From IMG/VR virus record IMGVR_UViG_3300032373_000001: a DNA stretch of 64,000 nt, one strand, 5' to 3'. Positions 33,353-64,000 of the stretch are shown here, piece by piece. Position 1 is the first letter of the stretch; every line of letters starts with the position of its first letter. The notes below the pieces were generated by a model. The model saw nothing but the letters and a program-made list of their open reading frames with translations, was not told the origin of the DNA and did not search any database. Source of the stretch: a virus. Its lineage: Duplodnaviria > Caudoviricetes. Both the position numbers and the translations under genes were made by a program.

Positions 33353-33386
33353 ATTTATGCGACGGGGCTTGACGCCCCTTGCAAGA

Positions 33387-34583
33387 TCACTGGAAGTGGC
33401 TGGTCACGTCCGGAGCCGACTGCCAGAGCTGGCTGAGGTCCATGTCACCCTCGGCCGAAGCCTCCTTGGTGACAGTGCCCAGCGTGGACGGGCCGGTCGA
33501 AGCCTTCTTGGGCTGCGGCTTGAGGTCGAGCTCGGAGGCTTCCTTGGCCTGCTCGTCGGCGAGACGGGAGACCTCATCGCCCTGGAGCTGGGCCAGGAGC
33601 GAGCGCTCCTCCTCATCGAGTGCCATGATGTTCATGGGGTCCATGTCCATCTCGACCTCCTCTTCCTCGTAGAAGGAAGAGGGCTCGTTCTGGTCCATGC
33701 CGACATCTTCCACGGCCTCGGGCTCCATCATGCCCTCTTCGCGCATCATCTCCATGTACATGGCTTCGTAGTCGTCGCCTCCCATGGGCTCACCGCAGGC
33801 TGCCTGAGAGGCCATGCCCTCTTCGTCGCAGGCCTTCTTCTTGGCCTCCTCGTCGACCTCGACCTCGACCTCCTCCTCATCGCTGTCGTCATCGCTGTCG
33901 TCATCGCTGTCGTCATCGCTGTCGTCGTCATCATCCTCATCGCCCTCATCGTCATCCTCGGCGAGGCGCATGAGGATGCGCTCCAGGCGGGCGACGCGGG
34001 ACTCGGTGTCGTCTTCGGCAGCGAAGCGGGTCAGGACGCGCTCCAGCGTCGCGATGCGGCCTTCCAGGGAAGCCTGCTTCTCTGACTCCTCCACCCCCTC
34101 AGCCTTGTGCTCGACCTCCTCCTGGATGGTCTCAGCGGCCTCAGCCTCAGCCTTCTCTTCCTTCTCGGTGCCCGCGGCCTTGTCCTCGGCCTGCTTGTTG
34201 AGGTTCTCGAGGCTGGTGAAGATGTGGGACTCGGGCAGGTCCATGAACAGGCTGGCTTGCCTCTCGACCTTCATCACGTCGGCGTCGGTGGAGGGCTCGC
34301 CCAACATCGCCGTGGCGAGGCGCAGGCAGAGGTTGGCCTTCTCGATGGCAGCCATCTTGGAAGCCGGGTGGTCGTGGCCCTCATTCGGGACAGCGGGTGC
34401 AGGTCCGTTCGGGTACGGGCCGGGGTGCGGGTCCTCAGCCCAGGAGCTGGGGTCGCCGTTCTCGTACTTGTCAGCCTCGGGGTCGGGCTGAGAGTGAGCG
34501 GGCGATGCCGGTCCTTCGTTGGGCACGGCGGGAGCCGCCGAGCTCTTCTTGTTGTTCCAGGTCAGTCGTTGACGAGCCATCAC
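33387..34583 (-). CDS. Capsid scaffolding protein
   Basis: Very acidic, coiled-coil and low complexity; lies between protease and capsid genes. Confidence 0.8.
   Translation of the reverse strand: MMARQRLTWNNKKSSAAPAVPNEGPASPAHSQPDPEADKYENGDPSSWAEDPHPGPYPNGPAPAVPNEGHDHPASKMAAIEKANLCLRLATAMLGEPSTDADVMKVERQASLFMDLPESHIFTSLENLNKQAEDKAAGTEKEEKAEAEAAETIQEEVEHKAEGVEESEKQASLEGRIATLERVLTRFAAEDDTESRVARLERILMRLAEDDDEGDEDDDDDSDDDSDDDSDDDSDEEEVEVEVDEEAKKKACDEEGMASQAACGEPMGGDDYEAMYMEMMREEGMMEPEAVEDVGMDQNEPSSFYEEEEVEMDMDPMNIMALDEEERSLLAQLQGDEVSRLADEQAKEASELDLKPQPKKASTGPSTLGTVTKEASAEGDMDLSQLWQSAPDVTSHFQ
33877..33924. repeat. Coding tandem repeat (TCATCGCTGTCG)x4 encoding (DDSD)4
   Basis: Four exact 12-bp copies read from the sequence. 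Confidence 0.9.
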
Positions 34584-41507: not shown

Positions 41508-44500
41508 AGCTGACTCCAACGGAGGGACAACTCTCGCATTGCCTGAATGCTGGCGAGACGCCCGGCATCTTGAAGGGGGGTATTCGGGGGCAAGTACCCA
41601 GGACTCGAACCGAGCGGGATGTTCTCTGGGGCACCCATGCCCCAGATCTGGACGCTGTTGAAGTCCCAGGAGCCCCGGGGAGCCTCCAACCTCACTTCCT
41701 CACCTACAGGCACGTAGGCGATCGTGACGTGGGGATTCCAGCGGGGGAACGAATCCTTGACCTCGAACCCCGCCTCTTCGAGCCGTGCGCGGAGCCCATC
41801 TCTGGCCCGATTGAGGTCGCGACTGAACCGGACCCTGCTGAAGATGACCTTTTGCTCAGGGCTCAAGAAGCGGTCCAGCCCTCTCAGGGCAGCCCGGACC
41901 GGGCCGCGGACCTCACTGAACGCCTGGGTGCAGACAACCTTGAAATCTTCCTCTCGCCCCTCGGGGACCTGACCCACGTACAGGAGGGTGATGTGGGCCG
42001 GGGATGGGTCCTCACTCTTGGTCGGGTACTGAGCCGCCAACCCCTCCGGGAGGGGAATGAACAGGCCCACAGAAGTGCCCGTGGGAGGGACCACCGCAGC
42101 AGCCTGGGCGGAAGCCGTTCGGCTCTGAGGGGCGGAGGCTCGCCGGGACATAAAAGTGTGACCCCTTTCCCGGCCCGTCTCGACGAACCCGCGACGCTTC
42201 AGCATGCGAATCGCGTGAGGGTTGACTGCATCCAGGCAGAAATCCAAATCCTCGAAGGCTTCAGAGATTGCATCGTACTCGTCGATGGCATAGTCCATGA
42301 GCTTGGCCCCGAGGCCCTGCTTTTGCCTGTCGGGGCGGACTGCGATGTCGAAGGAGTAGCAGTCGTTGCTAACCTCGTCGAACAGTACCGCGACCAGCTC
42401 CCCGCCGACCATGAGCCCTGCCTTGAAGTCCTTGCCGCTGAAGATGTTGATGCCCGCTTGCTTGGCGATCTCCCAAGGGTCCGGGCCATCCCACGGAACC
42501 TCGAAGACCCACTCGACCCGATTGCTGAGCTTCAGGGCCTTTTCCTCGCCGCCTGCTGCCAAGATAAGGACACCGTCCTCTTCTTTGAGCACATCACCCT
42601 CGAACCGGGCTCCCTGAGCCGTGGTCCAAGCGACCTTGGTCTGCTGGGTCCACTTCTCCCCATCGGTATCTCGTCCAGCCTCCAGCGCGCCGAGATAGAA
42701 CCAGTGCTCTTCGATGCTGGCACGATCTGCGCCGCGAGGCAGGGCAGCCGTAGACGCCCCGTAGTCGGGTTCGGTGACCAGCTCCCAGGTGTTGGAGTAG
42801 AGGACCGGGACGCCCGCAGCGTCTTCTTTCGACTGGCCGATCGTCGGGTGGATGCTCGCAGTACGACTCATGCCCGCCCCCTTGGGCTGAGGAGAACCAT
42901 TCGCATACAACCGGGAACCCCGAACATAGCGCACCAGGTCCTGTTCTCCCAGCTGATAGGGGGTGTTGCTCAAGAGACTCATGGCCTGGGCCTTGGTCAT
43001 CAGCTTCGGACCCTTCAGGACGACGTCCTGATTCCAGGTGACCTCTTCCGAATAGGAGGGCTTGGGCATGGTGTCGGTCCGGAACCGGATTGCAACGACC
43101 GGACCCTCATCCTTGTCGATGTGGGTAGTCTGGGTCCCCGGGACGTAGTCTCCCCACACCAACGAGATGGCATACACGGCATAGCCGCCGAACTTCTTGA
43201 TTCCGGGCGGGTCAAGCAAGAGCTTCTTGGAGCGGAGAATAGAGGCAGCACGCTTGGCGGTGGTGAAGTGGACGAACTCATCCGACGCCAAGTTCATCTC
43301 ATAGACGCGGCCTTCCATGAAGGTGGTCTCGCTCGTGGGCGTCGGACCCGCAGAGCCCACCTTAACCTTCATGGTATCTCCAGTCCACTCCCCACCCTTT
43401 TCCTTGTACCACTTGGCAGCCCACCCTTGATGGAATCGGACAGGCATCTTGGGGTGCTTATCTTGGGCCGACCTCAGCGCCTCGGCCCAGAGGGCTGCAT
43501 TCTCGGGCTTGCCGAAGTCCCCCTCAAAGAACTCCCTTGAACCCTTGAACCAAGCCGCCCGAAGCTGGCGAGACGCAGCGCTGGAGAACAGGCCCGCCAC
43601 AGCCTTGTAGGCTTCCCCGATCGCCTTCCTGTACTTGCCCTGAGCAGAGGCTCCGGCCCGCTTCAGGTCATAGAAGAACGCAAGCGGATAGGTCCGGGTG
43701 TCGTGCCGGCGCTGGCCCACCATGATGCGGAAAGCTGCTGCCCGTTCCTCTATCGGGAGGGCTTCCAACCCCTCCCGCATACGCTCAATAGCGTCCGGCA
43801 ACTTGGTGTAGAACTCCCGGTCGTCCAGCGAATGCTGCGATCGGTTTTGGCCCTGCTGGCGGATGTCCGGGGTGCGGATCTTCTTGCCGGGGAGGCCCGC
43901 CTGGATCTTGTCGGAGGCGAATCCCGCCAGAGTGCTCAGGAGGTTCTGGGCATAGTGGCGCATCTCGTGCTGAAGGGCCTGCTGGATCCACTTGGCGTTG
44001 ACCTTCGGGCTAACCTCGACCTCTATGACGGCGGTGCGCGGGTCGAACTCGGCCGAGCGACGACCTCTGGTGTCGCTGAGTATCAGATTCACCCCAGGCT
44101 TCTTGGCACTCCGAAGGATGTCACGCTTCATATTCTCGATGTAGGCGAGCATGTAGTCCGGGATCGGACCTTCCGGGGGCTGGAGCTTCTTCAGGAGGTC
44201 AGCGTTTTCCTTCTCGATCAGCTCCTCAAGGCGGTCCCCGTACTTCCAACCCTTGAGGTCTGCTTCGAACCTCTTCTGAACCGGCCCGCTCAACACCACG
44301 GCTTCTGGGTGGAGCTTGCTGAGCCGTTCCCACTCCTCCCATGCAGAGTTGTCGGAGCCCATGCCTTGGGCCACGCCCTTGTCCATACGGGTTTTAGCCC
44401 AAGAAGCGACGGCCCAGCGATACATCTCGTCCAACATCGCCGGAGGAGCTTCGAGCAGACCTGCCTGCTTCGATGCAACGAAACGGTCAGGGATACCCAC

Positions 44501-46897
44501 GGGCCGGGTAGCAGCGGCGCACTTTTCAGAAGAGATCCTGACCGTCGGGAGAACCTGCCGCAACATCCCCAGGATCATATCCGGAACAGCCTTGGGGCCG
44601 AAGGCAACAAGTTTCCCCAACGCTTCACAGAAGGACTCCTCGGGGTTCTTGTTGGCGTACCCGCTGATAGGTAGCCCCGGAACGCGGACCACGGGGGGCC
44701 CGCCCCCTTCCAGATAGTCCCGGATGTCCTCTGCTGAGTCGAGGCCCTGACTCGACGCGGGGCCGTACTCCAAGGCAGAGAGTTGGAGGTGTAGGATAGG
44801 GTCCGCCTTCTTCAAGGCACTATCGATGACCCAAGAGGCACCCACAGATTCCATCTTCCGAAGAGCCCGGCGGAGGTCCAAGTCCTTGGAGGTCCCCCGA
44901 ATGAGTCCCCCCCAAGTCTTCCGGGCATCTCCGGAGAGCACCGTCTGGTAAAGGTGATGGCCCATCTCATGGGCCATCACCCAGACAAACCTGCGGATGT
45001 CCGAGCCGAGCTCCCAAGGGGTGACGTGGATCATCCCCCTCTCATAGTAGGCCCCTGCGCTGCTGGGGACCCCCGCCTCAAAATTCCACTGAATGTGGAC
45101 CGGGACCATACGTTGGAGAATGATGGGGGCGGTTTGTTGGGAACGCTCCCGAAAGAGGGCCAAGCCCTGCCGAACGATCGGGAGTTTGTCTTGGTACGGG
45201 GAGTCTTCGAAGCCTCGGAACACCACGCGGAACCCCGAGAGGCTCACGACCTCTTCCTCCGGGACCAGAAAGGGGATCGGCTCCTGACCGCCGCGCAGAC
45301 TCGCAGACCACTCTGCCAAATCCCCAAGCACCGACCACGACTTGCGCGCCTTTGCCCGGATGCGGTTGGCCCACTTTCGGGCTTCGTCTTTCCACTTGCC
45401 CAGAGCTTCCACTTCGGCTTCCTGCCGGGACCAGAGCGGACGGCGCGTCAAGTAGGACCGAGTCTGAGCCTCTGCGTCCTCTCGAGAGGACGCATATCCC
45501 CGGTCCAAGTAGAACCGGACGAGCTCTTCAAACAGTTCCTCTGGGGGTCGCCAAGGGTTCCCCGAGGAATCCTTCACCGGAATTTGAGAAGAGGGGACCC
45601 TGCCCACCTCATAGGCGAACTCCCACATCGGCTTGAGTGCTCGATCCAAGAAGGCGCGGGCATCTTGAACATTCGCAGGGGAAGTCCTCCCAGGATACTG
45701 GGAGGAGCGGATGCGGCCTTCCAAGTCCTGGCGGACAGTAGCCGTGAAGGAATCGAAGTGCTCCCGCCAACGGTTGACGGCAGCAGATACCTCCTGGGCC
45801 TGAGAGATGCTTTGAACGCGGTCAGCGGCCTTGGCCAGGGCCAAGATGTCTTTCCGAAACCTCTGGATAAGGTTCTCGTCCAGCACTTCCTTGCGGGCAG
45901 TCTTCCCCGGCCCCTTCTTGTCAGCGGCTTCCATCTGCTGGAGGATCTTCTTGACCCAAGCGAGCCCAGGGTCACCGCCCCACAGGAGCCAAGAGACGTA
46001 CCCCTTGTCGTTCCAGGGCTCGCCCTTGTGCTCTTCGGAAATGCCCTTGTTCTTCTGGTGCCGACTGAAGAAGCCGTGCATCTGCTTGATGGTGTCGGGG
46101 GCGATGTTGTCGCGGTTCTTCAGGTTGACAGCGCGCTGAACGCCGGACCCGATGCCCTCTTTGCCAGCTTCCTCGGAAGTCAGACCGCCCTTGTTCGAAG
46201 GGGACGCCTTCTGACGATACTCCAAACCCTTCTCCGCAGCTTTCGCGACCGACTCCGGAGGCTGGAAGTTGATGCCCTTGTATTTCTCCGGCACAGCCGA
46301 CCGAAAGCTAAGGGCCTGCTTGAACCTGCGTGGACTCAAAAGGGAGGCTGCGCGGGGGAAAGCAAACCGCACCGGATCCTGACTGACTCGAACAGGGAGG
46401 TCAAGACCAACATCCCTCAAGAGGGTGGAGGCCCTCGAGACCCCGCCAGCCGAAGGGACCAGGAGCCCCATCATTGCCCCGCTAACCTTGACCGGGGCAT
46501 ATTCCCGCTTGGAGACCCACTCCCCCTCATCCTTTTTCCAGAGGAAGGAGTCGAGCATCGCCTGCCCCTGAGCCTCCTCGACGCACTCTTCATCCTCCTC
46601 GCCCCACTCCTCGTCGTAGCAGCCATCAGGGATTTGGAACTGCTCATACCAACCCTCCCCCGCGATGTAGTCTGCGTGAACGGGGTGCTCCTCGGCCCAA
46701 CGCTCTGTGTATTCCACGGGAATTAGCTGGCTCCGGAGCTTAGAGGCATCCAGCACCAAGCACACATCCCGATGACTGATGTCACCGCTGAACAGAGGCT
46801 TCACCGAGAAGCTCAAGAAGGGTGCGGGACTCTTCATGACCCCCGAACGAAGAATCTTGAGCGCGTTGGACCAAGAAGTGGTGTGGTAGAGATTCAA
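41504..46897 (-). CDS. Polyvalent protein: two ART-like domains, two zincins, GNAT, 2H phosphoesterase and several small conserved phage domains
   Basis: LYHTT..LSFS..EGE; WLLWGGDPG..W; HEMGH; HEMRH; GWAAKWYK.KGG.W; VHFTT; AVRPDRQKQGLGAKL; HITL...PHVTI. TTG start. Confidence 0.78.
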   Translation of the reverse strand: MNLYHTTSWSNALKILRSGVMKSPAPFLSFSVKPLFSGDISHRDVCLVLDASKLRSQLIPVEYTERWAEEHPVHADYIAGEGWYEQFQIPDGCYDEEWGEEDEECVEEAQGQAMLDSFLWKKDEGEWVSKREYAPVKVSGAMMGLLVPSAGGVSRASTLLRDVGLDLPVRVSQDPVRFAFPRAASLLSPRRFKQALSFRSAVPEKYKGINFQPPESVAKAAEKGLEYRQKASPSNKGGLTSEEAGKEGIGSGVQRAVNLKNRDNIAPDTIKQMHGFFSRHQKNKGISEEHKGEPWNDKGYVSWLLWGGDPGLAWVKKILQQMEAADKKGPGKTARKEVLDENLIQRFRKDILALAKAADRVQSISQAQEVSAAVNRWREHFDSFTATVRQDLEGRIRSSQYPGRTSPANVQDARAFLDRALKPMWEFAYEVGRVPSSQIPVKDSSGNPWRPPEELFEELVRFYLDRGYASSREDAEAQTRSYLTRRPLWSRQEAEVEALGKWKDEARKWANRIRAKARKSWSVLGDLAEWSASLRGGQEPIPFLVPEEEVVSLSGFRVVFRGFEDSPYQDKLPIVRQGLALFRERSQQTAPIILQRMVPVHIQWNFEAGVPSSAGAYYERGMIHVTPWELGSDIRRFVWVMAHEMGHHLYQTVLSGDARKTWGGLIRGTSKDLDLRRALRKMESVGASWVIDSALKKADPILHLQLSALEYGPASSQGLDSAEDIRDYLEGGGPPVVRVPGLPISGYANKNPEESFCEALGKLVAFGPKAVPDMILGMLRQVLPTVRISSEKCAAATRPVGIPDRFVASKQAGLLEAPPAMLDEMYRWAVASWAKTRMDKGVAQGMGSDNSAWEEWERLSKLHPEAVVLSGPVQKRFEADLKGWKYGDRLEELIEKENADLLKKLQPPEGPIPDYMLAYIENMKRDILRSAKKPGVNLILSDTRGRRSAEFDPRTAVIEVEVSPKVNAKWIQQALQHEMRHYAQNLLSTLAGFASDKIQAGLPGKKIRTPDIRQQGQNRSQHSLDDREFYTKLPDAIERMREGLEALPIEERAAAFRIMVGQRRHDTRTYPLAFFYDLKRAGASAQGKYRKAIGEAYKAVAGLFSSAASRQLRAAWFKGSREFFEGDFGKPENAALWAEALRSAQDKHPKMPVRFHQGWAAKWYKEKGGEWTGDTMKVKVGSAGPTPTSETTFMEGRVYEMNLASDEFVHFTTAKRAASILRSKKLLLDPPGIKKFGGYAVYAISLVWGDYVPGTQTTHIDKDEGPVVAIRFRTDTMPKPSYSEEVTWNQDVVLKGPKLMTKAQAMSLLSNTPYQLGEQDLVRYVRGSRLYANGSPQPKGAGMSRTASIHPTIGQSKEDAAGVPVLYSNTWELVTEPDYGASTAALPRGADRASIEEHWFYLGALEAGRDTDGEKWTQQTKVAWTTAQGARFEGDVLKEEDGVLILAAGGEEKALKLSNRVEWVFEVPWDGPDPWEIAKQAGINIFSGKDFKAGLMVGGELVAVLFDEVSNDCYSFDIAVRPDRQKQGLGAKLMDYAIDEYDAISEAFEDLDFCLDAVNPHAIRMLKRRGFVETGRERGHTFMSRRASAPQSRTASAQAAAVVPPTGTSVGLFIPLPEGLAAQYPTKSEDPSPAHITLLYVGQVPEGREEDFKVVCTQAFSEVRGPVRAALRGLDRFLSPEQKVIFSRVRFSRDLNRARDGLRARLEEAGFEVKDSFPRWNPHVTIAYVPVGEEVRLEAPRGSWDFNSVQIWGMGAPENIPLGSSPGYLPPNTPLQDAGRLASIQAMRELSLRWSQL

Positions 46898-54151: not shown

Positions 54152-54490
54152 TCAGCCCTTCCCGTGCTCGTCCGAGGCCCCACGGACCGGCCACCGACCG
54201 CTTGCGCGGGACTCCGTCTCAGCGCTGAGGATCTTGTCCTCATTGATCTCCTCCAGAGCCTCCAGCTCCTCGACGAACCCCTTGATCAGGGACTGAGCTT
54301 CGGGGCTCGCGGGGTCCGTGTGGGGGAAGGCACCTTCGAGGGACTTGGTCACTGCCCGAACGACCCCGCGAGAGTAGAGCGCGACCTTGTCCAAGCTGGT
54401 CAGGATCGCCCTGCGGGTCTCGTCACCCTTCGGGAGAGAGCGAGCCAGCCGCACCAGAGCCTGTCGCTCCTGCTTCGAAATCCTTTTCAT
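54152..54490 (-). CDS. Hypothetical protein with leader family 2 (candidate head cargo)
   Basis: Starts MKRISKQERQALVRLARSLPKGDETRRAILTSLDKVA; AGGAGG RBS. Confidence 0.75.
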   Translation of the reverse strand: MKRISKQERQALVRLARSLPKGDETRRAILTSLDKVALYSRGVVRAVTKSLEGAFPHTDPASPEAQSLIKGFVEELEALEEINEDKILSAETESRASGRWPVRGASDEHGKG

Positions 54491-56333
54491 CGGAGGTCCT
54501 CCTATCCAGAGTTGCCGATAAGGAAAGGATTGCTCTGGCGAGGGCCTCTATCGAGACAGTGTCGCCCGAAGCGGTCTTGAGGCTGGCGAAACGCCCTTGG
54601 CTCTCCTTGGGTTTGGCGTAGGTCAACCCCAAACCCTTCGCGAGCTGGGACACGACGTCGGAGTTCTCGACCAGCTGCCGTCCCGTGTCGCTATAGATGC
54701 CTCGCATCATCTCGTTGTATGTCGGATCGTTGACGGTCAGCCGGTCCCGCTCGACCTTCTCCCGCACAGCCACCGGATCGAGGTTCAGGAGCTCCAGGAT
54801 GGTGTCGATGTCCAGCGAGCCCTTCTGGTACAGGTTGTAGAGCGCGTCGAAGGTGTCCCGGTTGTCCCGCAGGGCAAGGCGGGTGAAGCTCAGGGAGGGG
54901 ACCAAGACAATCTTATCCCCGTCCTCGTCTTCCTCCACAAAGCCCATACGAGCACACATAGGACGCAAGAGGATTTCTTCCACCAGTTTCTGGAGCTGCT
55001 CTCGCAAGAGCATGTAGCGGGTGTTGATGGCCTCCAGGTTCACCCGGTCCCCGGAATAAGAGCCCTCTCCTGTCAGGAGGCTCTCCGTGATGCCCAGGCC
55101 CGCATACAACTGACGGTTGGTCAGCTCATACTCGCCGTCCAGGTTCAAGAGGCGCTGGTCTGCCCCCATTTCTTCCCAGCGGACCTCGAAGTTGGAGACG
55201 ATGGAATAATCCGGGTCCATCAGGGCCATATCGACCTGCTCCCGGAGGTCCTCCACGTCACCCAGGCTAAGATCTTCCCCGTACACAATGCGGATAGGGG
55301 TCATGTGCCGCGAGGCGATGGAGGTCTGAGCCTGACGGAGCTTGTCCCGATAGACCAGGGCTCGCATGCAGCACTGGAGGATCGAAGTCCCACGGGCCTC
55401 GTAGTCCGACTTCTTGTTGTAGAGGCAGTACACGAAGCTGCCAGCATACGGGTCCGTACCCAAGACCACGTTCCCACCCTTCCGGACCGCGTCGATCAGG
55501 TGGGGAGGCATGTCATCCACGACCTCCTTTGCCACCGGGTCTCCCGCTGCCGCCTGCTCGATGACCTTCTTGGTCTCGGAGTCCGGGAGCATCTCCACGA
55601 TCTTCTTGTCGGTGAAGTTAAACGTGCGGACCCTAATGTTCTCGGGGGGGAGGCAGACCAACTTGGTCCAGCCCTTGTAGTTCTTCTTCAGCCACTTGGC
55701 AGCGCGCTTGTCGGCGTCCTCGTACTTGATCCTCTTCTCTACAGCCTCACCATCTTCCGTCAAAACCCGCTGCGTGTAGTGAGTGATATCTTCCGGCATC
55801 TCCGGGTTCTTGTCCTCGCACCAGAGATACACCTCGCCGATGAGGTTGCGCTCACGGGTGATCGCCAAGAGCCGGTCCGTCAGGTCGATGCGCCGGACCC
55901 ATTTCTCACAGAAGCGCATCGCCGCCTCCGCCATCTTCCGATTCTTGGCGCGAGGGATTGCCAACCGTACCTTGCTGATCGGCAGGATGGAATGTAGGGA
56001 AATCGCCTGGCTGACGTAGGGTTCGTTCTTATCGAAGAAGCGGTAGTAGGCCCACTGCTCATGGAGGCTCTGGGGCAGCTCCAAGAAGTCCGTGGAGAGC
56101 TCCGGGGAGTAGAAGTTGCCTCCGGCTCCCATCACCGACCCGCCGTTGCCGAAGCCGCCTCCACCGTAGGATGCGGTCCGAGACTTCATCTGGCTGGAAA
56201 CCACCCGCCGAGGCGGGCCAGCCTTGGCCTTCTTCTTGCCGTCTCCGTTGGAGACCTTGTTGACCACCTGAGCATCATCTTCTTGCTGCTTGCCCAGCCG
56301 CTGGCCGAACCCCTTACGACGACCCATCTGCAA
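54423..56333 (-). CDS. Portal protein
   Basis: 636 aa two genes downstream of terL; FYSPE...YYRFFD..EPYV.QAI.LH, RGTSIL, helical C-terminal half. Confidence 0.8.
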   Translation of the reverse strand: MQMGRRKGFGQRLGKQQEDDAQVVNKVSNGDGKKKAKAGPPRRVVSSQMKSRTASYGGGGFGNGGSVMGAGGNFYSPELSTDFLELPQSLHEQWAYYRFFDKNEPYVSQAISLHSILPISKVRLAIPRAKNRKMAEAAMRFCEKWVRRIDLTDRLLAITRERNLIGEVYLWCEDKNPEMPEDITHYTQRVLTEDGEAVEKRIKYEDADKRAAKWLKKNYKGWTKLVCLPPENIRVRTFNFTDKKIVEMLPDSETKKVIEQAAAGDPVAKEVVDDMPPHLIDAVRKGGNVVLGTDPYAGSFVYCLYNKKSDYEARGTSILQCCMRALVYRDKLRQAQTSIASRHMTPIRIVYGEDLSLGDVEDLREQVDMALMDPDYSIVSNFEVRWEEMGADQRLLNLDGEYELTNRQLYAGLGITESLLTGEGSYSGDRVNLEAINTRYMLLREQLQKLVEEILLRPMCARMGFVEEDEDGDKIVLVPSLSFTRLALRDNRDTFDALYNLYQKGSLDIDTILELLNLDPVAVREKVERDRLTVNDPTYNEMMRGIYSDTGRQLVENSDVVSQLAKGLGLTYAKPKESQGRFASLKTASGDTVSIEALARAILSLSATLDRRTSDEKDFEAGATGSGAAGSLSPEG

Positions 56334-56667
56334 TCTCCTCCGCCGCCTGCTGCTCAGCCGCCCTCAAGAGGGCTTCTTCTCGCTCCTGTCGGACCCGTTC
56401 TCGGAGCTGTTGCGCCAGCTCATCCTCGGTCATCTCGTCGGTTTCTCGAGGGCCATTGCTGTAGGGGCTCACCATGCTGGGAACGTCCTGGATCATCTCC
56501 AGGAGCCCCCGGAGGTGCCGCAGGGTCCTTCGCTTCCGCTGAGGAGGTACGCCTACGGCTTCTGAGGCAGAGCGGAGTGCAGCACGGACCTCGGACTCCG
56601 CTCGACGAAGGCGGATCAGGACCTCACGGTCTTCCGCGCTACTCTGGCGGATCCGGAAACGAGTCAT
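56314..56667 (-). CDS. Hypothetical protein between terL and portal
   Basis: 117 aa, ATGA overlap with terL stop. Confidence 0.7.
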   Translation of the reverse strand: MTRFRIRQSSAEDREVLIRLRRAESEVRAALRSASEAVGVPPQRKRRTLRHLRGLLEMIQDVPSMVSPYSNGPRETDEMTEDELAQQLRERVRQEREEALLRAAEQQAAEEIADGSS

Positions 56668-58580
56668 CGACGGCGGCCTCGGGGAATGGTGCGACTACTG
56701 TGGGACCCTACCCCAGTGCGGCGCGCGGACCTTCGGGAATTCCCGAAGGGGGTCTTGCCTGCTGAAGGCAGGCCCCGGCGACCGGACGCCCCCAGCGTTG
56801 CATGCTGGTAGGTCTTGTTCTGGGTAGCGCAGAACACCATGCGAACCAAAGCGTCACTGTAGTCGTCGTGTTTCCCTTCCATCTGGGGGGCCTCGACGTT
56901 GACGATGTACTTGGACTTGTACTCCGCCTGAAGCTCCAACAGCTCTTGGATGTAGTCACACCACTCCTCGTCGTCCGCCAACGGCCAGTTGTAGAGCCGC
57001 ATCTTATGGTCCATCATGAGGTGCATGAAATTGGTGTAGACCTGGGAGTTGAAGCTGGGGTTGAACAGCTTCGACTTGATGTTCTTCAGGCCACGGCGGT
57101 TCAGCGCCTGCTCGAAAGGGATGCCAGCCCACTGGTCGAACATCCCCTCCACGATGTAGAAGCGCTTGCTCAGGTCGTAGACCCAGTCCGCGACGTGATC
57201 GAACTCCAACCGCTCGTAGTCTGCGTAGTCGCCCTCGCCAGCGCGGATGCGCTCGATGTAGTCCAAGACTACGTTGCCATCCGGGTCGTTGTGGCCAACG
57301 GCGACTGCAGAATAGTCGCCGACGAGGGCGATGTCGACGCCCATGAAGTGGGGGGCGCGAGGCTGTGCCCGGAGCTTGGGGCGCATGTCGGGGACCACGC
57401 AATCGTGCAGGTCCTTGGGGGTCTGGATCCAGCCACGAGTCTGATCGCTGAAGATCGCACCGAACTCAGTGTCGAAGACGTTGGGGTCCTTTAGGTAAGA
57501 ACCGACGAACGTCTCAGCAGGAACTGTGGGGTTGACCTCCCACGTAGGGGCCTGGATGCAGAGGAGGTTGTCTGCGGCTGCGTTGTCGCCAAAACCCAAC
57601 CGGAACTGCTTATAGAAAAGGCCCTGCTTGCCCAGCGGCGAGGAGATCATGATGATCCGACCCTCGTTCTCTCCGACAGGCTTGGTCTTGTCGTTGGGGT
57701 CCTTCTTGCTGAAGGTACGGGTAGAAGGCTCGACCGCCTGATAGACCTCGTCGGCCGACGCCTGCCCCTTGTCTCCGAAGTGAGCGACCTCATCCAGGGC
57801 AACCAGCAGGTTGGCTCCACCACGAAGGCCCTTAGCCACACAAGACCGGAAGGTCACGTTGATGCTGAACCGGGCCTTGGGGTTGTCCGCGTAGGACCCG
57901 TACTGCTCGATGTCATAGGGGGTCTGGAAGGTGGCATAGCTCTGCGTGGCGTTCGCAGCATAGGGTCGGAAGAAGTCACACTTGGTGAAGTGCCCCGAGG
58001 CCTCCCTGTAGAGCAAGGACGCCTGGTCCTTGTCGGTAGCGACCGAGATCAGCTGGATGACGTTCGATTGAGAAGAGCCGTAGTATGCCTGGGGGTTGCC
58101 CTTCAGGAGGAGCTTGTACGCCTCATAGGCGACGATGCAAGACGTGATCAGCGTCTTCCCAGAACGGCGACCAACACTGAGTACCATCTCGCGGCGCTGC
58201 CTGCCAGGGACGACCGCATCGATGTTGCAGCGGCCCTCACTGTGGAGGTACTTGATGTAGCTGGCCTCGGTGTGGTACTGAGGGTTCTGCCGCCGGAAGT
58301 CTGTGATGACCACCCGATAGACGTAGAAACCATCCGTGTCAACGAGGTCTTCGTCGTAGGCTGGGTGGTTAGTCGGGATCGGCACATCCAGCGGGAACCC
58401 GAGGGGGTTGTCGTCCAGCCCCATACCATAGTGGGCCTTGAGGATGATACGCTGAACCGGGAACAGCTTGAGGCCCAGCCCCCACTCACTCTCCACGAAC
58501 GTAATGATGTCAACCGCCGCATCGTCCGTAGAGTTAGACGAGCGGCGACCGACGCCAGCTACCAGGTTCCCCAGGCTCAT
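56664..58580 (-). CDS. terL: Terminase large subunit
   Basis: Walker A GRRSGKT, Walker B LVALDEVAH, coupling motif ISSP, nuclease FMGVDIA and HDDYSDA. Confidence 0.93.
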   Translation of the reverse strand: MSLGNLVAGVGRRSSNSTDDAAVDIITFVESEWGLGLKLFPVQRIILKAHYGMGLDDNPLGFPLDVPIPTNHPAYDEDLVDTDGFYVYRVVITDFRRQNPQYHTEASYIKYLHSEGRCNIDAVVPGRQRREMVLSVGRRSGKTLITSCIVAYEAYKLLLKGNPQAYYGSSQSNVIQLISVATDKDQASLLYREASGHFTKCDFFRPYAANATQSYATFQTPYDIEQYGSYADNPKARFSINVTFRSCVAKGLRGGANLLVALDEVAHFGDKGQASADEVYQAVEPSTRTFSKKDPNDKTKPVGENEGRIIMISSPLGKQGLFYKQFRLGFGDNAAADNLLCIQAPTWEVNPTVPAETFVGSYLKDPNVFDTEFGAIFSDQTRGWIQTPKDLHDCVVPDMRPKLRAQPRAPHFMGVDIALVGDYSAVAVGHNDPDGNVVLDYIERIRAGEGDYADYERLEFDHVADWVYDLSKRFYIVEGMFDQWAGIPFEQALNRRGLKNIKSKLFNPSFNSQVYTNFMHLMMDHKMRLYNWPLADDEEWCDYIQELLELQAEYKSKYIVNVEAPQMEGKHDDYSDALVRMVFCATQNKTYQHATLGASGRRGLPSAGKTPFGNSRRSARRTGVGSHSSRTIPRGRRR

Positions 58581-59275
58581 GCGATCTTATCCTTCATCTT
58601 GCGCTTGGCGTCTTCCTTCCAGACATCAGCGTCCACCGACTTCACGAGATTGGTAAACGTGGTCTCGATCAGCTCCTCGCGGCAACCTGCCTGAGCCATG
58701 GCATCCTTGAAAGTCTCCAGGATGAACACGAACAGCGCTTCAAAGGCCGGGGAGTCCAGGTCGACCATGTTGGCCGAGGCGATCTTCTTCCTGTTGATCC
58801 AGAGGTCCGCCATGGACTTCAAGACCCGAGCGCGCTGCGCAGCGTACTTTGGGATGTCTTCAGGGCGACCTTGACGTTGAAGCTCCAGGCGCTCGAACTT
58901 GATCATCGCCGCTTCTTCGCTGAGCGCCTTCATCATCTGGGTGAAGGCGTCATCCCCCTCAGCGTCATTTCGGAGAGACTGAACCACCCGGTCGCCTGAG
59001 ACCAAGTCCTCCCGCGCCTCTTCGATCTCTTGGACCTGGGGGTTCGCAACCGGAAGGTGCGACTTAACCTTGTTCCGGCCCGGCTTGGACCGCATGACGA
59101 TGGGGGCCTTGGGGTTTCCCTTCAAGGTCAGGATCGCGTGGTCCTGAAGGTCCACCGCATCGGGGCGAACATAGCGCTCGTTGCCATTGGCGTCCAGGAC
59201 CTTGACACGCTGAGTCCCCGCAGGCAAGTTCGCCAAGATGTCTTTGCGGTCTTGGGGGGTCTGTTTCGTTGTCAC
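58577..59275 (-). CDS. Probable terminase small subunit
   Basis: Immediately upstream of and overlapping terL; helical C-terminal half. Positional inference only. Confidence 0.5.
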   Translation of the reverse strand: MTTKQTPQDRKDILANLPAGTQRVKVLDANGNERYVRPDAVDLQDHAILTLKGNPKAPIVMRSKPGRNKVKSHLPVANPQVQEIEEAREDLVSGDRVVQSLRNDAEGDDAFTQMMKALSEEAAMIKFERLELQRQGRPEDIPKYAAQRARVLKSMADLWINRKKIASANMVDLDSPAFEALFVFILETFKDAMAQAGCREELIETTFTNLVKSVDADVWKEDAKRKMKDKIA

Positions 59276-59297: not shown

Positions 59298-60188
59298 TCA
59301 GCGGATCAAGACCGGACCGATCGAGGGTTCCCCGCTGCCCAGGACCCGGCGGTCGGGGCTGAAGGTGAAGTTCTGAGGAGAAGCTCCACCGCCATAGAAG
59401 GAAGTCCTGTTCCCGGTCGGCCCTGCGGGACCCGTCACAGTAACAGTCGGGCCCACAACACTGGCAGTGTACCCTGGAAGGGCATCGATCGCCGCCTCCA
59501 AGCGGGAAGCGACCGCATCTACATCAACGACAGCTGTGTAGTCGATCGTGATGGTGGTGGCAGCGTCCGGGGGAAGACCCGTCGTGTCGAGGGTGATGGC
59601 CCCTGTCGTGTAGTTGATTGAAGAGCCGCCAGGGTTGCCATCGCCAGTGAACCCTCCGACCCCATCACCCACCTGGGACCGGCCCACTGCCCCCGAGGTC
59701 CAATTTAGGGTGACAGAGCCCGCTTCGACCGGAATGTTGGCGGGAACATTGATCAGGTTGGGGCCTGCGGTGCTGAATACAGCAAGGGCTCCGTTGGGGG
59801 CAGTGTCGGTGATGTCCTCACCGGCGTAAGCTACGCCAGACTCGACGTCGAAGTCGACCCCAGACTCCAGGACATACTCCCCCAACCGGATCGTCGTAGG
59901 CCCCGCAAAACTGGTCGCAGCGACCGCGATAGTTCCAGTGGCCCGGACTGGGACCGGGGAGGTGGTGTAGTCCACGTGCCCCACCCGCGTATGAACCCCA
60001 GGCGAGTTGCCCTGCTGGTTCTCGGTGCCCTGCTCGTTGCCGGGGATCTCCGGGAAGTGCTGGATCGTGAACTCGGAACGCACCTTCACCGGGTTGCCGC
60101 TGGCACCCTTCGACGGGTCGCTGCTCCCCCGAAGGTTGGCGACCAAGATCTTGAACGGTTTCTGACCGGAGATGAGCTTGCGGGACAT
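59298..60188 (-). CDS. Probable virion structural protein
   Basis: G/T/A-rich, with modules resembling those in 52597..54147 and 50751..51983; AGGAGG RBS. Confidence 0.65.
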   Translation of the reverse strand: MSRKLISGQKPFKILVANLRGSSDPSKGASGNPVKVRSEFTIQHFPEIPGNEQGTENQQGNSPGVHTRVGHVDYTTSPVPVRATGTIAVAATSFAGPTTIRLGEYVLESGVDFDVESGVAYAGEDITDTAPNGALAVFSTAGPNLINVPANIPVEAGSVTLNWTSGAVGRSQVGDGVGGFTGDGNPGGSSINYTTGAITLDTTGLPPDAATTITIDYTAVVDVDAVASRLEAAIDALPGYTASVVGPTVTVTGPAGPTGNRTSFYGGGASPQNFTFSPDRRVLGSGEPSIGPVLIR

Positions 60189-60243
60189 AGGCCCTCCTGA
60201 AACAGGAGAACCATAGGCGAGTTACCGCAAGAAGCCCCGACGA

Positions 60244-61236
60244 TCAGGAGCTGGCGTATCCGTAGAAGAGCCAGCCGCCCGGCACAGGAACCGCGAAAGC
60301 GGGTCCCCACTTGTCGTTATTGTCCCCATCCTCGTACGCGAAATTCCGAGCTTCCCTCAGCGTTCGCGGCTTCCGGTCCCGGACCTTGAATCCGTGCTTC
60401 TCTGCGATAGTCCCAGAGTAGCCCTCATAATCTTCCCCTTCCTCTTCGGCCTCGAACCGCGCTTCGCTCTCTGCCGAAGCGCGAAGGTCCTCGAAGACCT
60501 TCTTGGGGTCTGACCCCCGGCCCCAGACAGAGAAGAAGTCTGCGCCAGCAGACTTCCCCCGTGCGGCCATGTACCGGGACAGGACGCGGAGCGGGTCGAG
60601 GGAAGCAGGTCTGCCTGCACTGAGGTTTTCCCGCCTCAGACGGTCCATCGTAGGCGGCCGGCATCCAGCCATGACTTGTCTCCCTTCGGGAGTGATCTCT
60701 CTCTCGATCGCGCAGGCAACCCTGCGTACCAGATAAGAGGGCCATTTCTCCGACCACTTGCTGTAGAAGAAGTCCTCGCCGCACACGCGGACGAGCTTCT
60801 CGGGGTTGGGCATGTTGGAGTCTGCTACCCAAACACACCTGCCCGTCAGGTCCCCGTAGCCTGCACAGTAGGGGGGCAATCCCCCTTCCGGCAACCCGTC
60901 GGTCACATCGAAGACCACCGAAGCGTGGGACCAGTCTCGACCTTCGGGATTCCAGGAGATCATGACAGGGGCACCTTTGTCGGTCCACTCCCGGAGTTGG
61001 GTGACTGTGGAAGGCGTCGTCAGGGTAGCCCGACAGCCGTAGTGCTGAGCTGTGGCCAGCGCCTGCTCCCACGCAGCCCCCCGCGTCGGGGTAGCCCCCA
61101 TGACCTGATTGACCTCATCCTCATCGCACTGATGCCCCAGAGCCTGGAGCGCCATACACATCGAGGTGGCCATACAGCTAAACTGAGTTCGCTGCCGGAC
61201 AGGTTTGATCATCGCCTTTGCGAAGAAATTCCTCAC
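60244..61236 (-). CDS. C39-like papain-fold peptidase fused to a second small domain
   Basis: QRTQFSC (Q..C) and WSHASVVFD (H, D). GTG start at 61236 overlaps the kinase stop, with AGGAGG RBS. Second domain GYSGTIAEK...DKWGPA...WLFYGYASS. Confidence 0.72.
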   Translation of the reverse strand: MRNFFAKAMIKPVRQRTQFSCMATSMCMALQALGHQCDEDEVNQVMGATPTRGAAWEQALATAQHYGCRATLTTPSTVTQLREWTDKGAPVMISWNPEGRDWSHASVVFDVTDGLPEGGLPPYCAGYGDLTGRCVWVADSNMPNPEKLVRVCGEDFFYSKWSEKWPSYLVRRVACAIEREITPEGRQVMAGCRPPTMDRLRRENLSAGRPASLDPLRVLSRYMAARGKSAGADFFSVWGRGSDPKKVFEDLRASAESEARFEAEEEGEDYEGYSGTIAEKHGFKVRDRKPRTLREARNFAYEDGDNNDKWGPAFAVPVPGGWLFYGYASS

Positions 61237-63221
61237 GACTCCTCCTGTACGGGTGCCGCTGGCAAGCGGACCCAAAAAGTGCAACCCCGGCCGTGGCCAT
61301 CGCTTTCGACCCCCGCAGCACCCCCATGACGCTCGGCGATGCTTCTACAGAGCGCCAAGCCCACCCCCGTACCTTCAGACAGGTCAGGTCGGATGCGGGC
61401 ATAGAGACCCCAGATCTTGCCCTGCTCGGAGGGAGACAGACCCACCCCGTTGTCTTTCAGATACACAGTCAAAAACCCAGCGTCGATCTCTGACCAGACC
61501 GCCAAAGTCGGTTGCGGAGAAGTGTTGTACTTCGAGGCATTGCGGACGATGTTGTAGAACATTTCCCGGATCAGCCTGGAAGACCCCAAGACAGTGCAGT
61601 CCGGTGACGGTGCCATAGTGACACCCAAACCAGCCCGGCCTGCTTCTCGGACCAAAGACTCGAACAGAAAGTGCAAAGATACCGGCTCCAGCTCGTCAGG
61701 ATCCAGGTGGCGTGCCTCACTAAACCGATAGAGGCCACCGACCAAGTCCACGATCTTGCGGCCCTCCTCCGCAATCATGAGGAGCATTTCCCGGTGCTCC
61801 TCTGGGAGCTCGGGGGACTCCCAGAGGATCTCCTCGGCCAACCCCACGATACTACGCGGACCGCTCTTGAGCTGGTGTACGCTGGCAGAAGCAACGCGCT
61901 CCAAGTCCGCGTTGCTTCTGCGAAGAACTGCCAGGGCTTGGTGGGTGTCGTGAACGTCGGACCCCACAAAATAAATCTTGCCGGGGTCCGCCGAGACGGC
62001 GGACCAAGACACCCAGCGATACTCGCCGGTCTTGTGCCGCCACCGATTGCGGTACGAGGAAGAGGCACACCCGCTCAAGAGCTGGCCTTGAGCCTCGCGG
62101 GTCGTCGCCAAGTCTTCGGGGTGGATGAAGGACTCTACACCCTTAGCACAGAGCTCCCCCTCCGAAGAGGAGCCTGACCAACTCAGCAGAGCCTTGTTTG
62201 CCCAGAGGACCTTCTTGCCCTCTTGAATCCGAATAAAAGACAAAGACAGGTCGATCAACTCCTTGGCCTCTTCGCGCTCCTTGATGCGGGCGATCTCCCC
62301 CGTAACGTCTCGCCCGACCCCGTACATGTACTCCCCGATCAGGGACCCTCGCCACTCGATCGTGCGGTAAGGCCCCTTCTGGGCAGCGAGGGAGCCGGGC
62401 TTCGTCCGGTATCGGTTCCTGTATCCTTGAAGAGGAACCCCGGACTCTGACTCTTCTTTGACATGATCAGTGCCGGGGAGGTCCTCTGGGTGCATCAAGT
62501 CTTGGAAGCGGGTGGACTCGATCTCTTCGGGGGTCCACCCGAGAACGTCAGTCCAAGCCTTGTTCACACTGGTGTAGTAGTCCGAACCAGCCTTCATCAG
62601 GCCATACATCTCTGCGGCCTCGTCATAGATCGCCGAGGACAGAAACAGCCTCCGCTCGAACTCGACTTCTTGAGTGACATCGCGGGCCACCGCATAGATG
62701 TTCTTGCCGTCTAAGACAGCCCCACACCACTGAAGCCAGCGATATTCGCCCTTCTCCGCTGCGGGCGTCCCGGGCTTCGTCCGGTATCGGTTCTTGAACC
62801 GATACACGCGGGACCCGCCCTCAACATCACCCTTCTCTTCTACGGTTCGGAGGACGTCTTCGGGATGTACGAGCTCCTCCAAGAAGTTCATCGACTCAAC
62901 CTCTTCTGGAGTCCAACCCAAAACCGTTTCCCAGGCATCGTTTGGGTTCTTGAAAGAAGTGCCGCCCACCGGCATCAGGGCGTAAAGCTCATTTCCTCCC
63001 TCCAAGAGGCGTTGCATTAACAGGAGGCGCCGACCCCGCTTCTCCCCAGACTTAAACAGCTGACGCAGGACTACCAGAGAGACCAGCAGCAAGAGGGAAA
63101 CCCACCCCTGGTACACCCAAGAAGGGAAGTCCAAGAAGGGCTGCGAGATGGCCGAAAACCCCAAGACGCACACCAGCAGGTAGACCCAACCCTTGACGTT
63201 CGCGCGCAGCTCACTAATCAT
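61233..63221 (-). CDS. Membrane-bound sensor histidine kinase with three PAS/PAC domains
   Basis: Two N-terminal TM helices; three HPED...RW..W...RDV PAS units; H-box VHQLK; N-box NIVRNASKY; G1 DNGVG; G2 GTGVGLA. Confidence 0.92.
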   Translation of the reverse strand: MISELRANVKGWVYLLVCVLGFSAISQPFLDFPSWVYQGWVSLLLLVSLVVLRQLFKSGEKRGRRLLLMQRLLEGGNELYALMPVGGTSFKNPNDAWETVLGWTPEEVESMNFLEELVHPEDVLRTVEEKGDVEGGSRVYRFKNRYRTKPGTPAAEKGEYRWLQWCGAVLDGKNIYAVARDVTQEVEFERRLFLSSAIYDEAAEMYGLMKAGSDYYTSVNKAWTDVLGWTPEEIESTRFQDLMHPEDLPGTDHVKEESESGVPLQGYRNRYRTKPGSLAAQKGPYRTIEWRGSLIGEYMYGVGRDVTGEIARIKEREEAKELIDLSLSFIRIQEGKKVLWANKALLSWSGSSSEGELCAKGVESFIHPEDLATTREAQGQLLSGCASSSYRNRWRHKTGEYRWVSWSAVSADPGKIYFVGSDVHDTHQALAVLRRSNADLERVASASVHQLKSGPRSIVGLAEEILWESPELPEEHREMLLMIAEEGRKIVDLVGGLYRFSEARHLDPDELEPVSLHFLFESLVREAGRAGLGVTMAPSPDCTVLGSSRLIREMFYNIVRNASKYNTSPQPTLAVWSEIDAGFLTVYLKDNGVGLSPSEQGKIWGLYARIRPDLSEGTGVGLALCRSIAERHGGAAGVESDGHGRGCTFWVRLPAAPVQEES
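62395..62793. repeat. Exact 24-bp direct repeat CCGGGCTTCGTCCGGTATCGGTTC (62395..62418 and 62770..62793) in PAS1/PAS2
   Basis: Read directly; encodes NRYRTKPG in both PAS domains. Confidence 0.85.
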
Positions 63222-63640
63222 CGAAATTCCGGGAGCTCCGCAAGGTCCAGCCAGAAGTCCGATACTACCTGCACCAAGCTGTCCAAGTCTTGGCGGCCGA
63301 CCGGCTTCTTGAGGTAGCTGTTGGCACCTTGCTCGTACGCACGGACGATGTCCGACGGGGAGGGGGATGTCGTCAGGACCAAGACTGGGATCTTCCTCAA
63401 CAACGCATCCGTCTTTCGGAAGGCCAAGAACTCATGCCCATCCATGACAGGCATGATCAGGTCCAGCAAGATCAGCTGGGGGCGGAGACCCAGCTCAACC
63501 ATAGAGATCGCGTCTCGCCCGTGCACCGCCACCTTGACTTCCACATTCTTGGGGCCATGGCGCTCCAAAGCCTTCCGCATGAGAAAAGCGTCTGCGGGTC
63601 GATCGTCCACGACCAGCAGGACTGGGATTTGGCGAGGCAT
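63218..63640 (-). CDS. Single-domain response regulator receiver (Rcp1/CheY-like)
   Basis: LLVVDD, LILLDLIMP (phospho-Asp), VLTTS, GANSYLKKP. Start moved to MPRQIP at 63640; its stop overlaps the kinase ATG. Confidence 0.92.
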   Translation of the reverse strand: MPRQIPVLLVVDDRPADAFLMRKALERHGPKNVEVKVAVHGRDAISMVELGLRPQLILLDLIMPVMDGHEFLAFRKTDALLRKIPVLVLTTSPSPSDIVRAYEQGANSYLKKPVGRQDLDSLVQVVSDFWLDLAELPEFR

Positions 63641-63641
63641 C

Positions 63642-64000
63642 TCAGCCCCCCGCCATCTGCAAGAAGCCATAGGCTGCTGCGCCACCTACGCCGACCAACC
63701 CCGCCGCCCAGAGGAGGTACTTCCCGAAGCCTTCCCACAGCACGGAAGCTGCCTCGCGGAGTTGCCTGTTCGCCTCATCTTCCCTTCGCCGGGCTGCCTC
63801 CACTTCTCGGTCAGAGAGCTGATGCGCCCGTTCGGCGGAACGCTCCTCCCGGTCCCCAGAGTGCTGGAGCACTCTCTCGATCAGGGACTTCTGATCGGCC
63901 ATCTGGTCCTGACGCTCTTTGCGTTCTTGCGCCAAGAGCTCGTCCATCTTGCCCACAAAGCCGCTGATGGTAGAGAGCAAGGTCTCAGTGGTGACGGTCT
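63642..64000 (-). CDS. Partial coiled-coil protein with C-terminal TM helix (holin-like candidate)
   Basis: Frame is open to the window edge; charged coiled coil then YLLWAAGLVGVGGAAAYGFL. Confidence 0.6.
   Translation of the reverse strand, partial: TVTTETLLSTISGFVGKMDELLAQERKERQDQMADQKSLIERVLQHSGDREERSAERAHQLSDREVEAARRREDEANRQLREAASVLWEGFGKYLLWAAGLVGVGGAAAYGFLQMAGG

Follow-up and report, generated by a model that had tools for sequence, protein, structure and literature searches.

A predicted kinase and receiver pair with an atypical H-box, carried as an accessory cassette in the late gene block of a huge phage

Bacteria sense their surroundings mainly through two-component systems, and the question raised by the locus described here is what such a system does in a phage, where it lies next to the genes for DNA packaging. 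The locus occupies one end of a 64,000-nucleotide stretch of a Caudoviricetes record (IMGVR_UViG_3300032373_000001), the whole of which we call the window. It encodes a sensor kinase-like protein with three PAS domains and a stand-alone receiver. An initial annotation held that this pair was wired into the virion and packaging operon, and that it sensed host physiology in order to time packaging or lysis, or else rewired host phosphorelays. The analysis presented below establishes that the pair belongs to the phage and that it is carried on a dispensable insert. As to its role, the reading we prefer, and to which we give a probability of about 40%, is that the two proteins may act as a PAS-gated phosphatase and a receiver serving as phosphate sink or adaptor on a host phosphorelay, and not as a switch for phage assembly.

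The gene order, strand and junctions were as initially annotated. All of the genes concerned are on the minus strand, and in the direction of transcription the first to fall within the window is that of a coiled-coil protein, of which the 3′ two-thirds lie at 63642-64000 and the TTG start ∼200 nt past the window end. It is followed by the receiver (140 aa, 63218-63640; PF00072, E 2.7e-19), the PAS kinase (662 aa, 61233-63221; three PAS_3 domains and HATPase_c in Pfam) and a C39-like cysteine peptidase with a GTG start (330 aa, 60244-61236; PF13529, E 1.1e-6), and then by the packaging genes as far as the portal. The stop codon of the coiled-coil gene, a TGA at 63642, is separated by one G from the receiver ATG (TGA-G-ATG), the receiver and kinase genes share an ATGA overlap, and the kinase and peptidase genes a GTGA overlap. 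Each of these coupled junctions is accompanied by a Shine–Dalgarno motif, that of the peptidase (AGGAGGAG) sitting within the 3′ end of the kinase gene. Promoter-like and terminator-like sites between 50000 and 64000 were no more frequent than expected from shuffled sequence. A genuine phage genome thus carries a complete pair of kinase and Rcp1-like receiver, in the same orientation as the packaging and head genes and translationally coupled to them, as had been proposed.

Whether the contig itself can be trusted was the first concern of the initial annotation, and here the answer is clear. The peptidase/kinase junction is spanned by short contigs of two further samples (59842-61387 and 61141-61919) and the junctions joining kinase, receiver and coiled-coil genes by other contigs of these samples (62819-64000 and 63175-63598), in every case with 0 differences, and the same gene order is found in two European Nucleotide Archive (ENA) assemblies. 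Since contigs from independent samples cross the junctions without a difference, and three samples and two ENA assemblies agree, misassembly can be excluded. A wrong join between a bacterial chromosome carrying the kinase and receiver and phage DNA might have been suspected from a slightly lower G+C content (0.59 against ∼0.62) and the atypical codon usage of the kinase gene, a mild outlier at 0.97 when length-matched pieces of other genes give 0.62 ± 0.16. However, besides the bridging of every junction, phage genes conserved in relatives flank the cassette on both sides and a start/stop overlap ties the kinase to the conserved phage peptidase gene, so that an artefact of this kind is extremely improbable.

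The window as a whole is phage DNA, because profile searches identify TerL, portal, prohead protease and polyvalent giant proteins among its genes, and no cellular housekeeping genes were seen there. It derives from microbial-mat metagenomes, in several samples, and the kinase gene is present on contigs of 138 kb and 411 kb, placing it in a huge phage with a genome of at least 411 kb (∼0.4 Mb). The last 10 kb of the window form a minus-strand gene run with a high third-position G+C content.

The receiver is of a familiar type. At 140 aa in all it has no output domain, and its top PDB matches are DrRR (6xvu, E 3.5e-24) and the cyanobacterial regulators Rcp1, RcpA and RcpB (E ∼5e-19), which upholds its description as an Rcp1-like receiver. 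The active-site residues D12, D13, D60 (the phospho-acceptor, codon 63461-63463), T90, Y109 and K112 are all present and, in an alignment of 15 family members, fall in invariant or near-invariant columns; W130 and P137 of the C-terminal tail are invariant in the alignment. The acidic pocket, phospho-accepting Asp, switch residues and tail that characterise an Rcp1-type single-domain receiver are therefore all in place. The best database relatives are 42-47% identical, and in a phylogeny the branches were long, with no supported placement for the receiver of the window.

The kinase is also recognisable in its overall architecture. Two N-terminal helices (residues 2-55) precede PAS1 (79-181), PAS2 (207-305), PAS3 (329-422), the DHp domain (424-504) and the CA, or ATP-binding, domain (512-656; 61254-61688 on the minus strand, HATPase_c E 1.8e-16). 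Its description as a protein with two transmembrane segments and three PAS domains can be kept for the PAS domains, which Pfam recognises as PAS_3, whereas the two N-terminal helices are weak and predicted with low confidence. An AlphaFold2 model has a mean predicted local distance difference test (pLDDT) score of 86.9, with PAS cores above 90 and a DHp helical hairpin at 424-468 and 474-504, and Foldseek matches it to WalK, NifL, LOV-HK, YF1, HK853 and ZraS. In the CA domain the N, G1 and G2 boxes are intact (N557, N561, D590, G592, G594, G617, G619 and G621) and the F box carries conservative substitutions (W604, Y607), giving the motifs of a GHKL ATP-binding domain. PAS1 and PAS2 are 45% identical in protein sequence, pointing to an old internal duplication, which is also marked by a 76-nt direct repeat in the gene (62346-62421 and 62721-62796, 74% identical, spacing 375 nt). 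As to what the PAS domains might bind, their sole PDB sequence match was an uncharacterised diguanylate-cyclase PAS domain, and no LOV-type Cys motif was apparent by eye. The search with NCBIfam gave no equivalog at cut-off, with the generic PAS ‘sensory_box’ domain model alone passing. Among 5.8 billion proteins, the nearest whole-kinase homologue is 30% identical over 54% of the length, and neither the kinase nor the receiver has a close relative in IMG/VR or the JGI metagenomes.

It is in the H-box that the kinase departs from its family. The box reads VHQLKSGP (residues 448-455; 61857-61880, minus strand), and we compared it column by column with 43 homologues. His449 is His in all 43 and also aligns with the His of the PDB kinase 8f71, so that the phospho-accepting residue is present. 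Around it, however, the canonical H-E/D-x-x-T/N-P-L pattern is replaced by H-Q-L-K-S-G-P. Immediately before the His, Val448 stands where 40 of the 43 have Ser or Ala. At H+1 is Gln450 (codon CAG, 61872-61874), a position that is Glu or Asp in 42/43; at H+4 is Ser453, where 35 have Thr, Asn or Glu; and Gly454 and Pro455, at H+5 and H+6, replace a Pro and a Leu that are each found in 38 homologues. Contigs of two other samples cover the Gln codon with 0 differences. Owing to this atypical box the Pfam HisKA model finds no match on the kinase. By homology the protein is nevertheless a member of the HisKA fold and family, though possibly not a working kinase.

The change at H+1 can be judged against published experiments. 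The acidic residue at this position in HisKA kinases is the general base for autophosphorylation. Replacement of the acid by Gln in CrdS (E372Q) abolishes kinase activity in vitro and leaves phosphatase activity (PMC3510030), and a matching kinase-negative, phosphatase-positive phenotype is cited there for NtrB E140Q. Substitution by Ala has the same effect in HK853 (E261A), HK4262 and HK1190 (PMC3510030). In the phytochrome branch, Agp1 D529H is inactive as a kinase, and DrBphP, which naturally lacks the acid at H+1, holds its regulator in a tight complex and works as a phosphatase under the control of light (PMC8292422). Given a Gln where the homologues have Glu or Asp, and the behaviour of the CrdS and NtrB mutants, the phage protein is by analogy more likely to be a PAS-gated phosphatase than a kinase. 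The simple scheme implied by the initial annotation, in which the protein senses a signal and then phosphorylates its partner, is for the same reason doubtful.

The comparison with DrBphP and DrRR is close enough to be informative at several points. Bacteriophytochromes (8sgk and 8avv, the latter DrBphP) are the second and third PDB sequence matches of the kinase core after 8f71, with E 3e-17 to 6e-17, and DrRR is the best match of the receiver. Because the best PDB matches of both proteins thus include a Deinococcus bacteriophytochrome and its regulator, we assign the two proteins, by sequence class, to a matched pair of phytochrome-type kinase and Rcp1-type single-domain receiver. DrRR and the phage receiver are alike in being stand-alone domains with a Trp-containing C-terminal tail, and DrBphP and the phage kinase share a non-acidic H+1 residue. 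They differ in the residue itself (His in DrBphP, Gln in the phage) and at H+4 (Glu and Ser, respectively), and in their inputs, which are a bilin-binding PAS-GAF-PHY module in DrBphP and three PAS_3 domains behind a predicted membrane hairpin in the phage protein. Unlike DrBphP/DrRR, the pair described here is phage-encoded. The phage receiver also belongs to the same family as those of the cyanobacterial pairs Cph1/Rcp1, CphA/RcpA and CphB/RcpB (PDB 1i3c, 1k68 and 1k66), with the motifs LTTS...ANSYL.KP...W, and like them is encoded beside a HisKA-type kinase. Compared with those pairs, the phage gene order is receiver and then kinase, the α2–β3 loop of the receiver is ∼10 residues shorter, and the kinase has no chromophore module and an atypical H-box. 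CrdS E372Q, NtrB E140Q and HK853 E261A resemble the phage protein in their non-acidic H+1 residue, with the identical Gln in the first two, but these are laboratory mutants of otherwise canonical kinases, whereas the phage change is natural and comes with changes at H-1, H+5 and H+6.

We now turn to the place of the pair in the phage genome. TerL is 69-71% identical to that of three IMG/VR huge-phage contigs and 46% identical to that of two more distant ones; CheckV estimates for the three closest imply genomes of ∼440 kb, and those of all the relatives are ∼440-480 kb. Two of the three closest (L002 and L003, with TerL identity of ∼70%) cover the position corresponding to the cassette, and both keep the order giant gene, C39 peptidase, 296-aa open reading frame (ORF), 232-aa ORF, TerL, 117-aa ORF and portal. 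The synteny that the initial annotation suggested surveying is therefore kept in the flanking genes and is missing for the cassette itself, which is absent from this slot in both L002 and L003. The records of all three closest relatives contain no HATPase_c or receiver domain, and no counterpart of the coiled-coil protein.

On the upstream side of the slot, for which the DNA beyond the window end was taken from ENA contig L041, lies the gene for a giant protein of 1,729 aa (∼1,720 aa in the relatives) with weak, sub-threshold tail-family matches, its C-terminus 61% identical to the L002 counterpart up to the last residue. Downstream, the first conserved gene is that of the peptidase, whose orthologues in L002 and L003 align with it from residue 1 onwards at 55-66% identity. 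The 296-aa ORF (59298-60188, minus strand) is 36-43% identical to its counterparts and has a weak phrog_6128 match; the 232-aa ORF (58577-59275, minus), which overlaps the TerL start, is 48-49% identical to ORFs in the same position and matches no Pfam or PHROG family. The Atlas neighbours of both are viral hypotheticals, with a T5 small terminase at 0.76 for the latter. The earlier labels ‘structural gene’ and ‘terS’ for these two ORFs, which no family or Atlas match confirms, are based on position and conservation, and by position the 232-aa ORF is a candidate small terminase. Further downstream on the minus strand are TerL (638 aa, 56664-58580; phrog_2, E 3.3e-23), the 117-aa ORF (56314-56667, an ORF call kept in the relatives) and the portal (636 aa, 54423-56333; phrog_16240, E 3.1e-24), the last 67-68% identical to that of the relatives.

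Between these two conserved blocks the phage carries a cassette of four genes, ∼3.7 kb in all, in the order HD hydrolase, coiled-coil protein, receiver and kinase. The HD-family hydrolase (190 aa; L041:1078-1650, past the window; PDB 2gz4, Atu1052-like, E 2e-4) is, like the rest, absent from the relatives. In L002 the slot holds one 182-aa orphan gene, and in L003 a Ros/MucR regulator and two small ORFs. The L003 regulator is a 503-aa protein (L003:4751-6262) with a Ros/MucR zinc-finger domain (E 5e-14); its presence suggests that the slot collects regulatory cargo and perhaps, weakly, that the host is an alphaproteobacterium. Since the relatives keep all the flanking genes in order and do without the cassette genes, the cassette is accessory and dispensable, inserted at a boundary between modules that is itself conserved, and does not belong to the morphogenesis core; it does not have the conserved presence and position among related phages that mark a core component of the packaging module. 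To describe it as wired into morphogenesis is accordingly an overstatement, as relatives with ∼70% TerL identity carry other genes in the slot. The more cautious statement of the initial annotation, that complete pairs are not standard in phage morphogenesis modules, is supported, since descriptions of these modules do not include them.

The boundary itself appears to be marked. A G+C-rich hairpin lies directly after the stop codon of the giant gene (L041:1047-1076, z-score -6.1, with only a weak U tract), and counterparts occur in L002 (∼5953-5990, z-score -3.1) and in L003 (∼4709-4745, z-score -7.1, followed by a U tract). From its sequence and recurrence the hairpin looks like a conserved transcription-unit boundary. 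The observation that no terminator is evident therefore applies inside the window, but past the window end there is this strong terminator-like hairpin ∼0.6 kb upstream of the coiled-coil gene.

The coiled-coil protein is the least familiar member of the cassette. Of its 186 aa, ∼155 form a coiled coil, the chain ends in one membrane anchor at the C-terminus, and it has no homologue among 5.8 billion proteins and no match in Pfam, PHROG or the PDB. Its earlier description as a transmembrane protein is right as far as membrane anchoring goes, but it is a tail-anchored orphan and not a polytopic membrane protein. We also considered whether it might be a holin. The same searches give this label nothing in support, although topology alone does not exclude it.

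Taken together, these features would be accommodated by the following scheme. The cassette would be transcribed by read-through together with the packaging and head genes, and the kinase-like protein held in the inner membrane by a short hairpin without an outside loop. Its three cytoplasmic PAS domains would sense an intracellular cue, be it a ligand, redox or energy state. Autophosphorylation would be weak or absent and phosphatase activity kept, as in CrdS E372Q, NtrB E140Q and DrBphP, and the receiver would obtain its phosphoryl group from host kinases or acetyl phosphate and lose it through the action of the phage protein. In this way the pair may damp or redirect a host phosphorelay late in infection. 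Of the two functions offered by the initial annotation, the rewiring of host phosphorelays thus fits the evidence better than the timing of packaging or lysis. A more specific version, in which the pair drains or redirects a phosphorelay that serves the host in stress, the cell cycle or kinase-based defence, depending on cell state, for example the day/night redox cycle of the mat, and in which such pairs have been captured repeatedly as sensory organs of phages, seems to us possible but doubtful.

How do other explanations compare with this phosphatase and sink? If the pair were a conventional switch, the PAS kinase would autophosphorylate in response to host state and phosphorylate the receiver, which would then set the moment of packaging or lysis by binding a protein of the phage, be it the terminase, the membrane-anchored coiled-coil protein or a factor in assembly or lysis. 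The presence of His449, of all ATP-binding motifs and of all receiver active-site residues is what such a switch would need, and the absence of a terminator between the pair and the packaging genes to which it is tightly coupled, the orphan gene for a membrane-anchored coiled coil that accompanies it and the natural occurrence of Gln at H+1 in another kinase subfamily all point the same way. However, Gln450 stands in place of the acid that kinases of this subfamily need in order to autophosphorylate (PMC3510030; PMC8292422), close relatives manage assembly and packaging with no such cassette, and in other phages the pairs are far from the terminase, at ∼45 kb (G009, G010), ∼47 kb (G012) and >100 kb (G011). 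We therefore consider a switch of this kind unlikely. A different suggestion is that the receiver soaks up the phosphoryl groups of a Detocs-like host defence while the phosphatase-like kinase keeps it empty, blocking the effector. Detocs comprises a kinase, DtcA, a stand-alone ‘buffer’ receiver, DtcB, which is proposed to absorb phosphoryl groups, and a receiver-effector, DtcC (bioRxiv 10.1101/2023.01.24.525353). The combination of kinase and stand-alone receiver is shared with the phage locus, and an H-box predicted to be kinase-negative and phosphatase-positive fits a sink. Membership of Detocs itself is rejected, as the locus has no receiver-effector gene and none of the six proteins searched, the cassette proteins included, matched a PADLOC defence model at E 0.01 or better. 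The locus is phage-borne, not part of a host defence island, its receiver is of the Rcp1 type and of another family, with no likeness to DtcB shown, and placement in a late operon is ill-suited to countering an early sensor, all of which makes a counter-defence role improbable.

The pair might also be a mere passenger, captured from a bacterium at a module boundary prone to recombination and serving the phage in no way, its odd H-box reflecting relaxed constraint. It is a singleton, with no orthologue above 30% identity among the 5.8 billion proteins, IMG/VR and the JGI metagenomes, the relatives do without it, four conserved positions of the H-box are changed and the codon usage of the kinase is mildly deviant, as would be expected of a passenger. 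On the other hand, all three ORFs are intact, without frameshift or stop, and the CA motifs, the PAS cores (pLDDT above 90) and the receiver active site are preserved. The start/stop overlaps and the Shine–Dalgarno motif for the conserved peptidase inside the kinase gene imply a settled junction, not a fresh one, and an identity of 30% to any cellular kinase implies that the gene has evolved on its own for a long time and has not decayed. Pairs of the same class have moreover been captured repeatedly by other large phages, among them a branch of this lineage whose copies are not orthologous. On balance a passenger also appears rather unlikely.

Several observations nevertheless count against the phosphatase and sink that we favour, or leave it without help. 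The phosphatase bias is argued by analogy, the Ser at H+4 differs from the Thr, Asn and Glu of the kinases tested, and the changes at H-1, H+5 and H+6 could equally mean that the DHp domain has lost its function. The natural sequence SHQTKTP in two unrelated IMG/VR kinases shows that one or more other HisKA subfamilies tolerate Gln at H+1. The cassette was found in one phage population only, and selection on it is therefore not measurable. The codon-usage deviation of the kinase fits a foreign origin and is uninformative on use. The U tract of the hairpin is weak in this phage, so that the hairpin does not fix the transcription start, and no match to the locus was listed from an RNA run. Finally, an interface prediction for the kinase core (residues 425-662) with the receiver scored 0.24, which gives no verdict and counts neither way.

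A remaining question is whether pairs of this class occur in other viruses. Adjacency of a kinase and an Rcp1-like receiver is common in bacteria, as initially stated and as seen in the database neighbourhoods of PAS kinases. We scanned IMG/VR with an alignment of Rcp1-like receivers and obtained 24 viral loci that encode one (L013-L036), at least 20 of them with an adjacent HisKA kinase on the same strand. A PAS domain is present in 7/9 adjacent viral kinases sampled, several of the contigs bearing a pair are 100-350 kb long, and several pairs carry an extra regulator with an output region. The neighbourhoods sampled are orphan-rich or clearly phage-like, with for example S74 tail-fibre genes or an HNH endonuclease, and three contigs that CheckV rates 100% complete (L014, L021 and L024), one of them with terminal repeats, share a trio of kinase, receiver and second regulator. 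When 22 of the adjacent kinases were aligned, about half had an H-box of the SHDL(Q/R)EPLR type and nearly all the rest also kept an acidic H+1 residue. In one locus (L020) the pair lies between two S74 tail-fibre genes; the same 260-kb viral contig, of 33% G+C, encodes a ribosomal protein S2 homologue (L020:79-921, E 1.6e-50) a few kb from the pair.

Two of these records (L017 and L018) have a TerL 46% identical to that of the window, with a regulator, kinase and receiver trio ∼45 kb from the terminase. Their kinase cores are 25-27% and their receivers 35-36% identical to those of the window. Because these values are below the identity to the best bacterial matches, the pairs look like separate captures that are not orthologous to the pair described here. 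In a distant relative, G009 (30560-33742; L038, L039), the TerL match is split into two parts of a single 1,121-aa open frame, so that this terminase may contain an intein or another in-frame insertion. Among GenBank phages, megablast gave no match. The 87 GenBank phage records returned by tblastn were not counted as precedent, and the two that were inspected are bacterial-looking DNA filed as phage.

The other genes of the window are mostly orphans, together with a flap endonuclease, a Dam methylase, a MoxR/VWA pair and a PARP-like protein, and the 64 kb contain no tRNAs. Two overlapping genes for the polyvalent giant proteins (37089-41519 and 41504-46897) lie between the portal and the prohead protease, and on account of this position their products are candidate capsid-packaged effectors. 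One combines a eukaryotic-type topoisomerase IB with an inorganic pyrophosphatase domain, the other a GNAT acetyltransferase with a 2H/LigT phosphoesterase. The PARP-like protein (887 aa, 3202-5865) has a weak match to the PARP/ADP-ribosyltransferase catalytic domain (E 3e-7). The MoxR-like AAA ATPase and a DUF2201 metallopeptidase/VWA protein are encoded on the plus strand at 27924-30314, amid an otherwise minus-strand region. On the 138-kb Logan contig, ∼10 kb upstream of the coiled-coil gene and in the same orientation, there is a 200-aa protein with weak matches to sigma-70 region 4, which could be a sigma factor of the phage encoded close to its late genes.

In its molecular class, then, the pair is an ordinary phytochrome-type kinase and Rcp1-type receiver with an unusual H-box, and the phage context is the unusual part. 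In the literature searched we found no paper on phage-encoded two-component systems, and a 2020 huge-phage survey, a 2025 study of soil huge phages and a 2026 review of jumbo phages make no mention of two-component terms. The case is strain-specific and its functional role is proposed by analogy, but the locus provides a clean, assembly-verified example of a complete pair within the late gene block of a huge phage, and the Gln at H+1 leads to a sharp biochemical prediction, that of an enzyme naturally kinase-off and phosphatase-on. If this is true, the cassette would provide a virus with a two-component module of its own directed at the signalling of the host, of a kind not yet described. The viral pairs, at least 20 in number and including the non-orthologous copies in a sister branch, point to repeated capture. 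Were they to be without use, the locus would simply illustrate how accessory cargo settles where two modules meet; if they are used, phages carry intracellular sensors of their own, going beyond listening to the quorum signals of their hosts.

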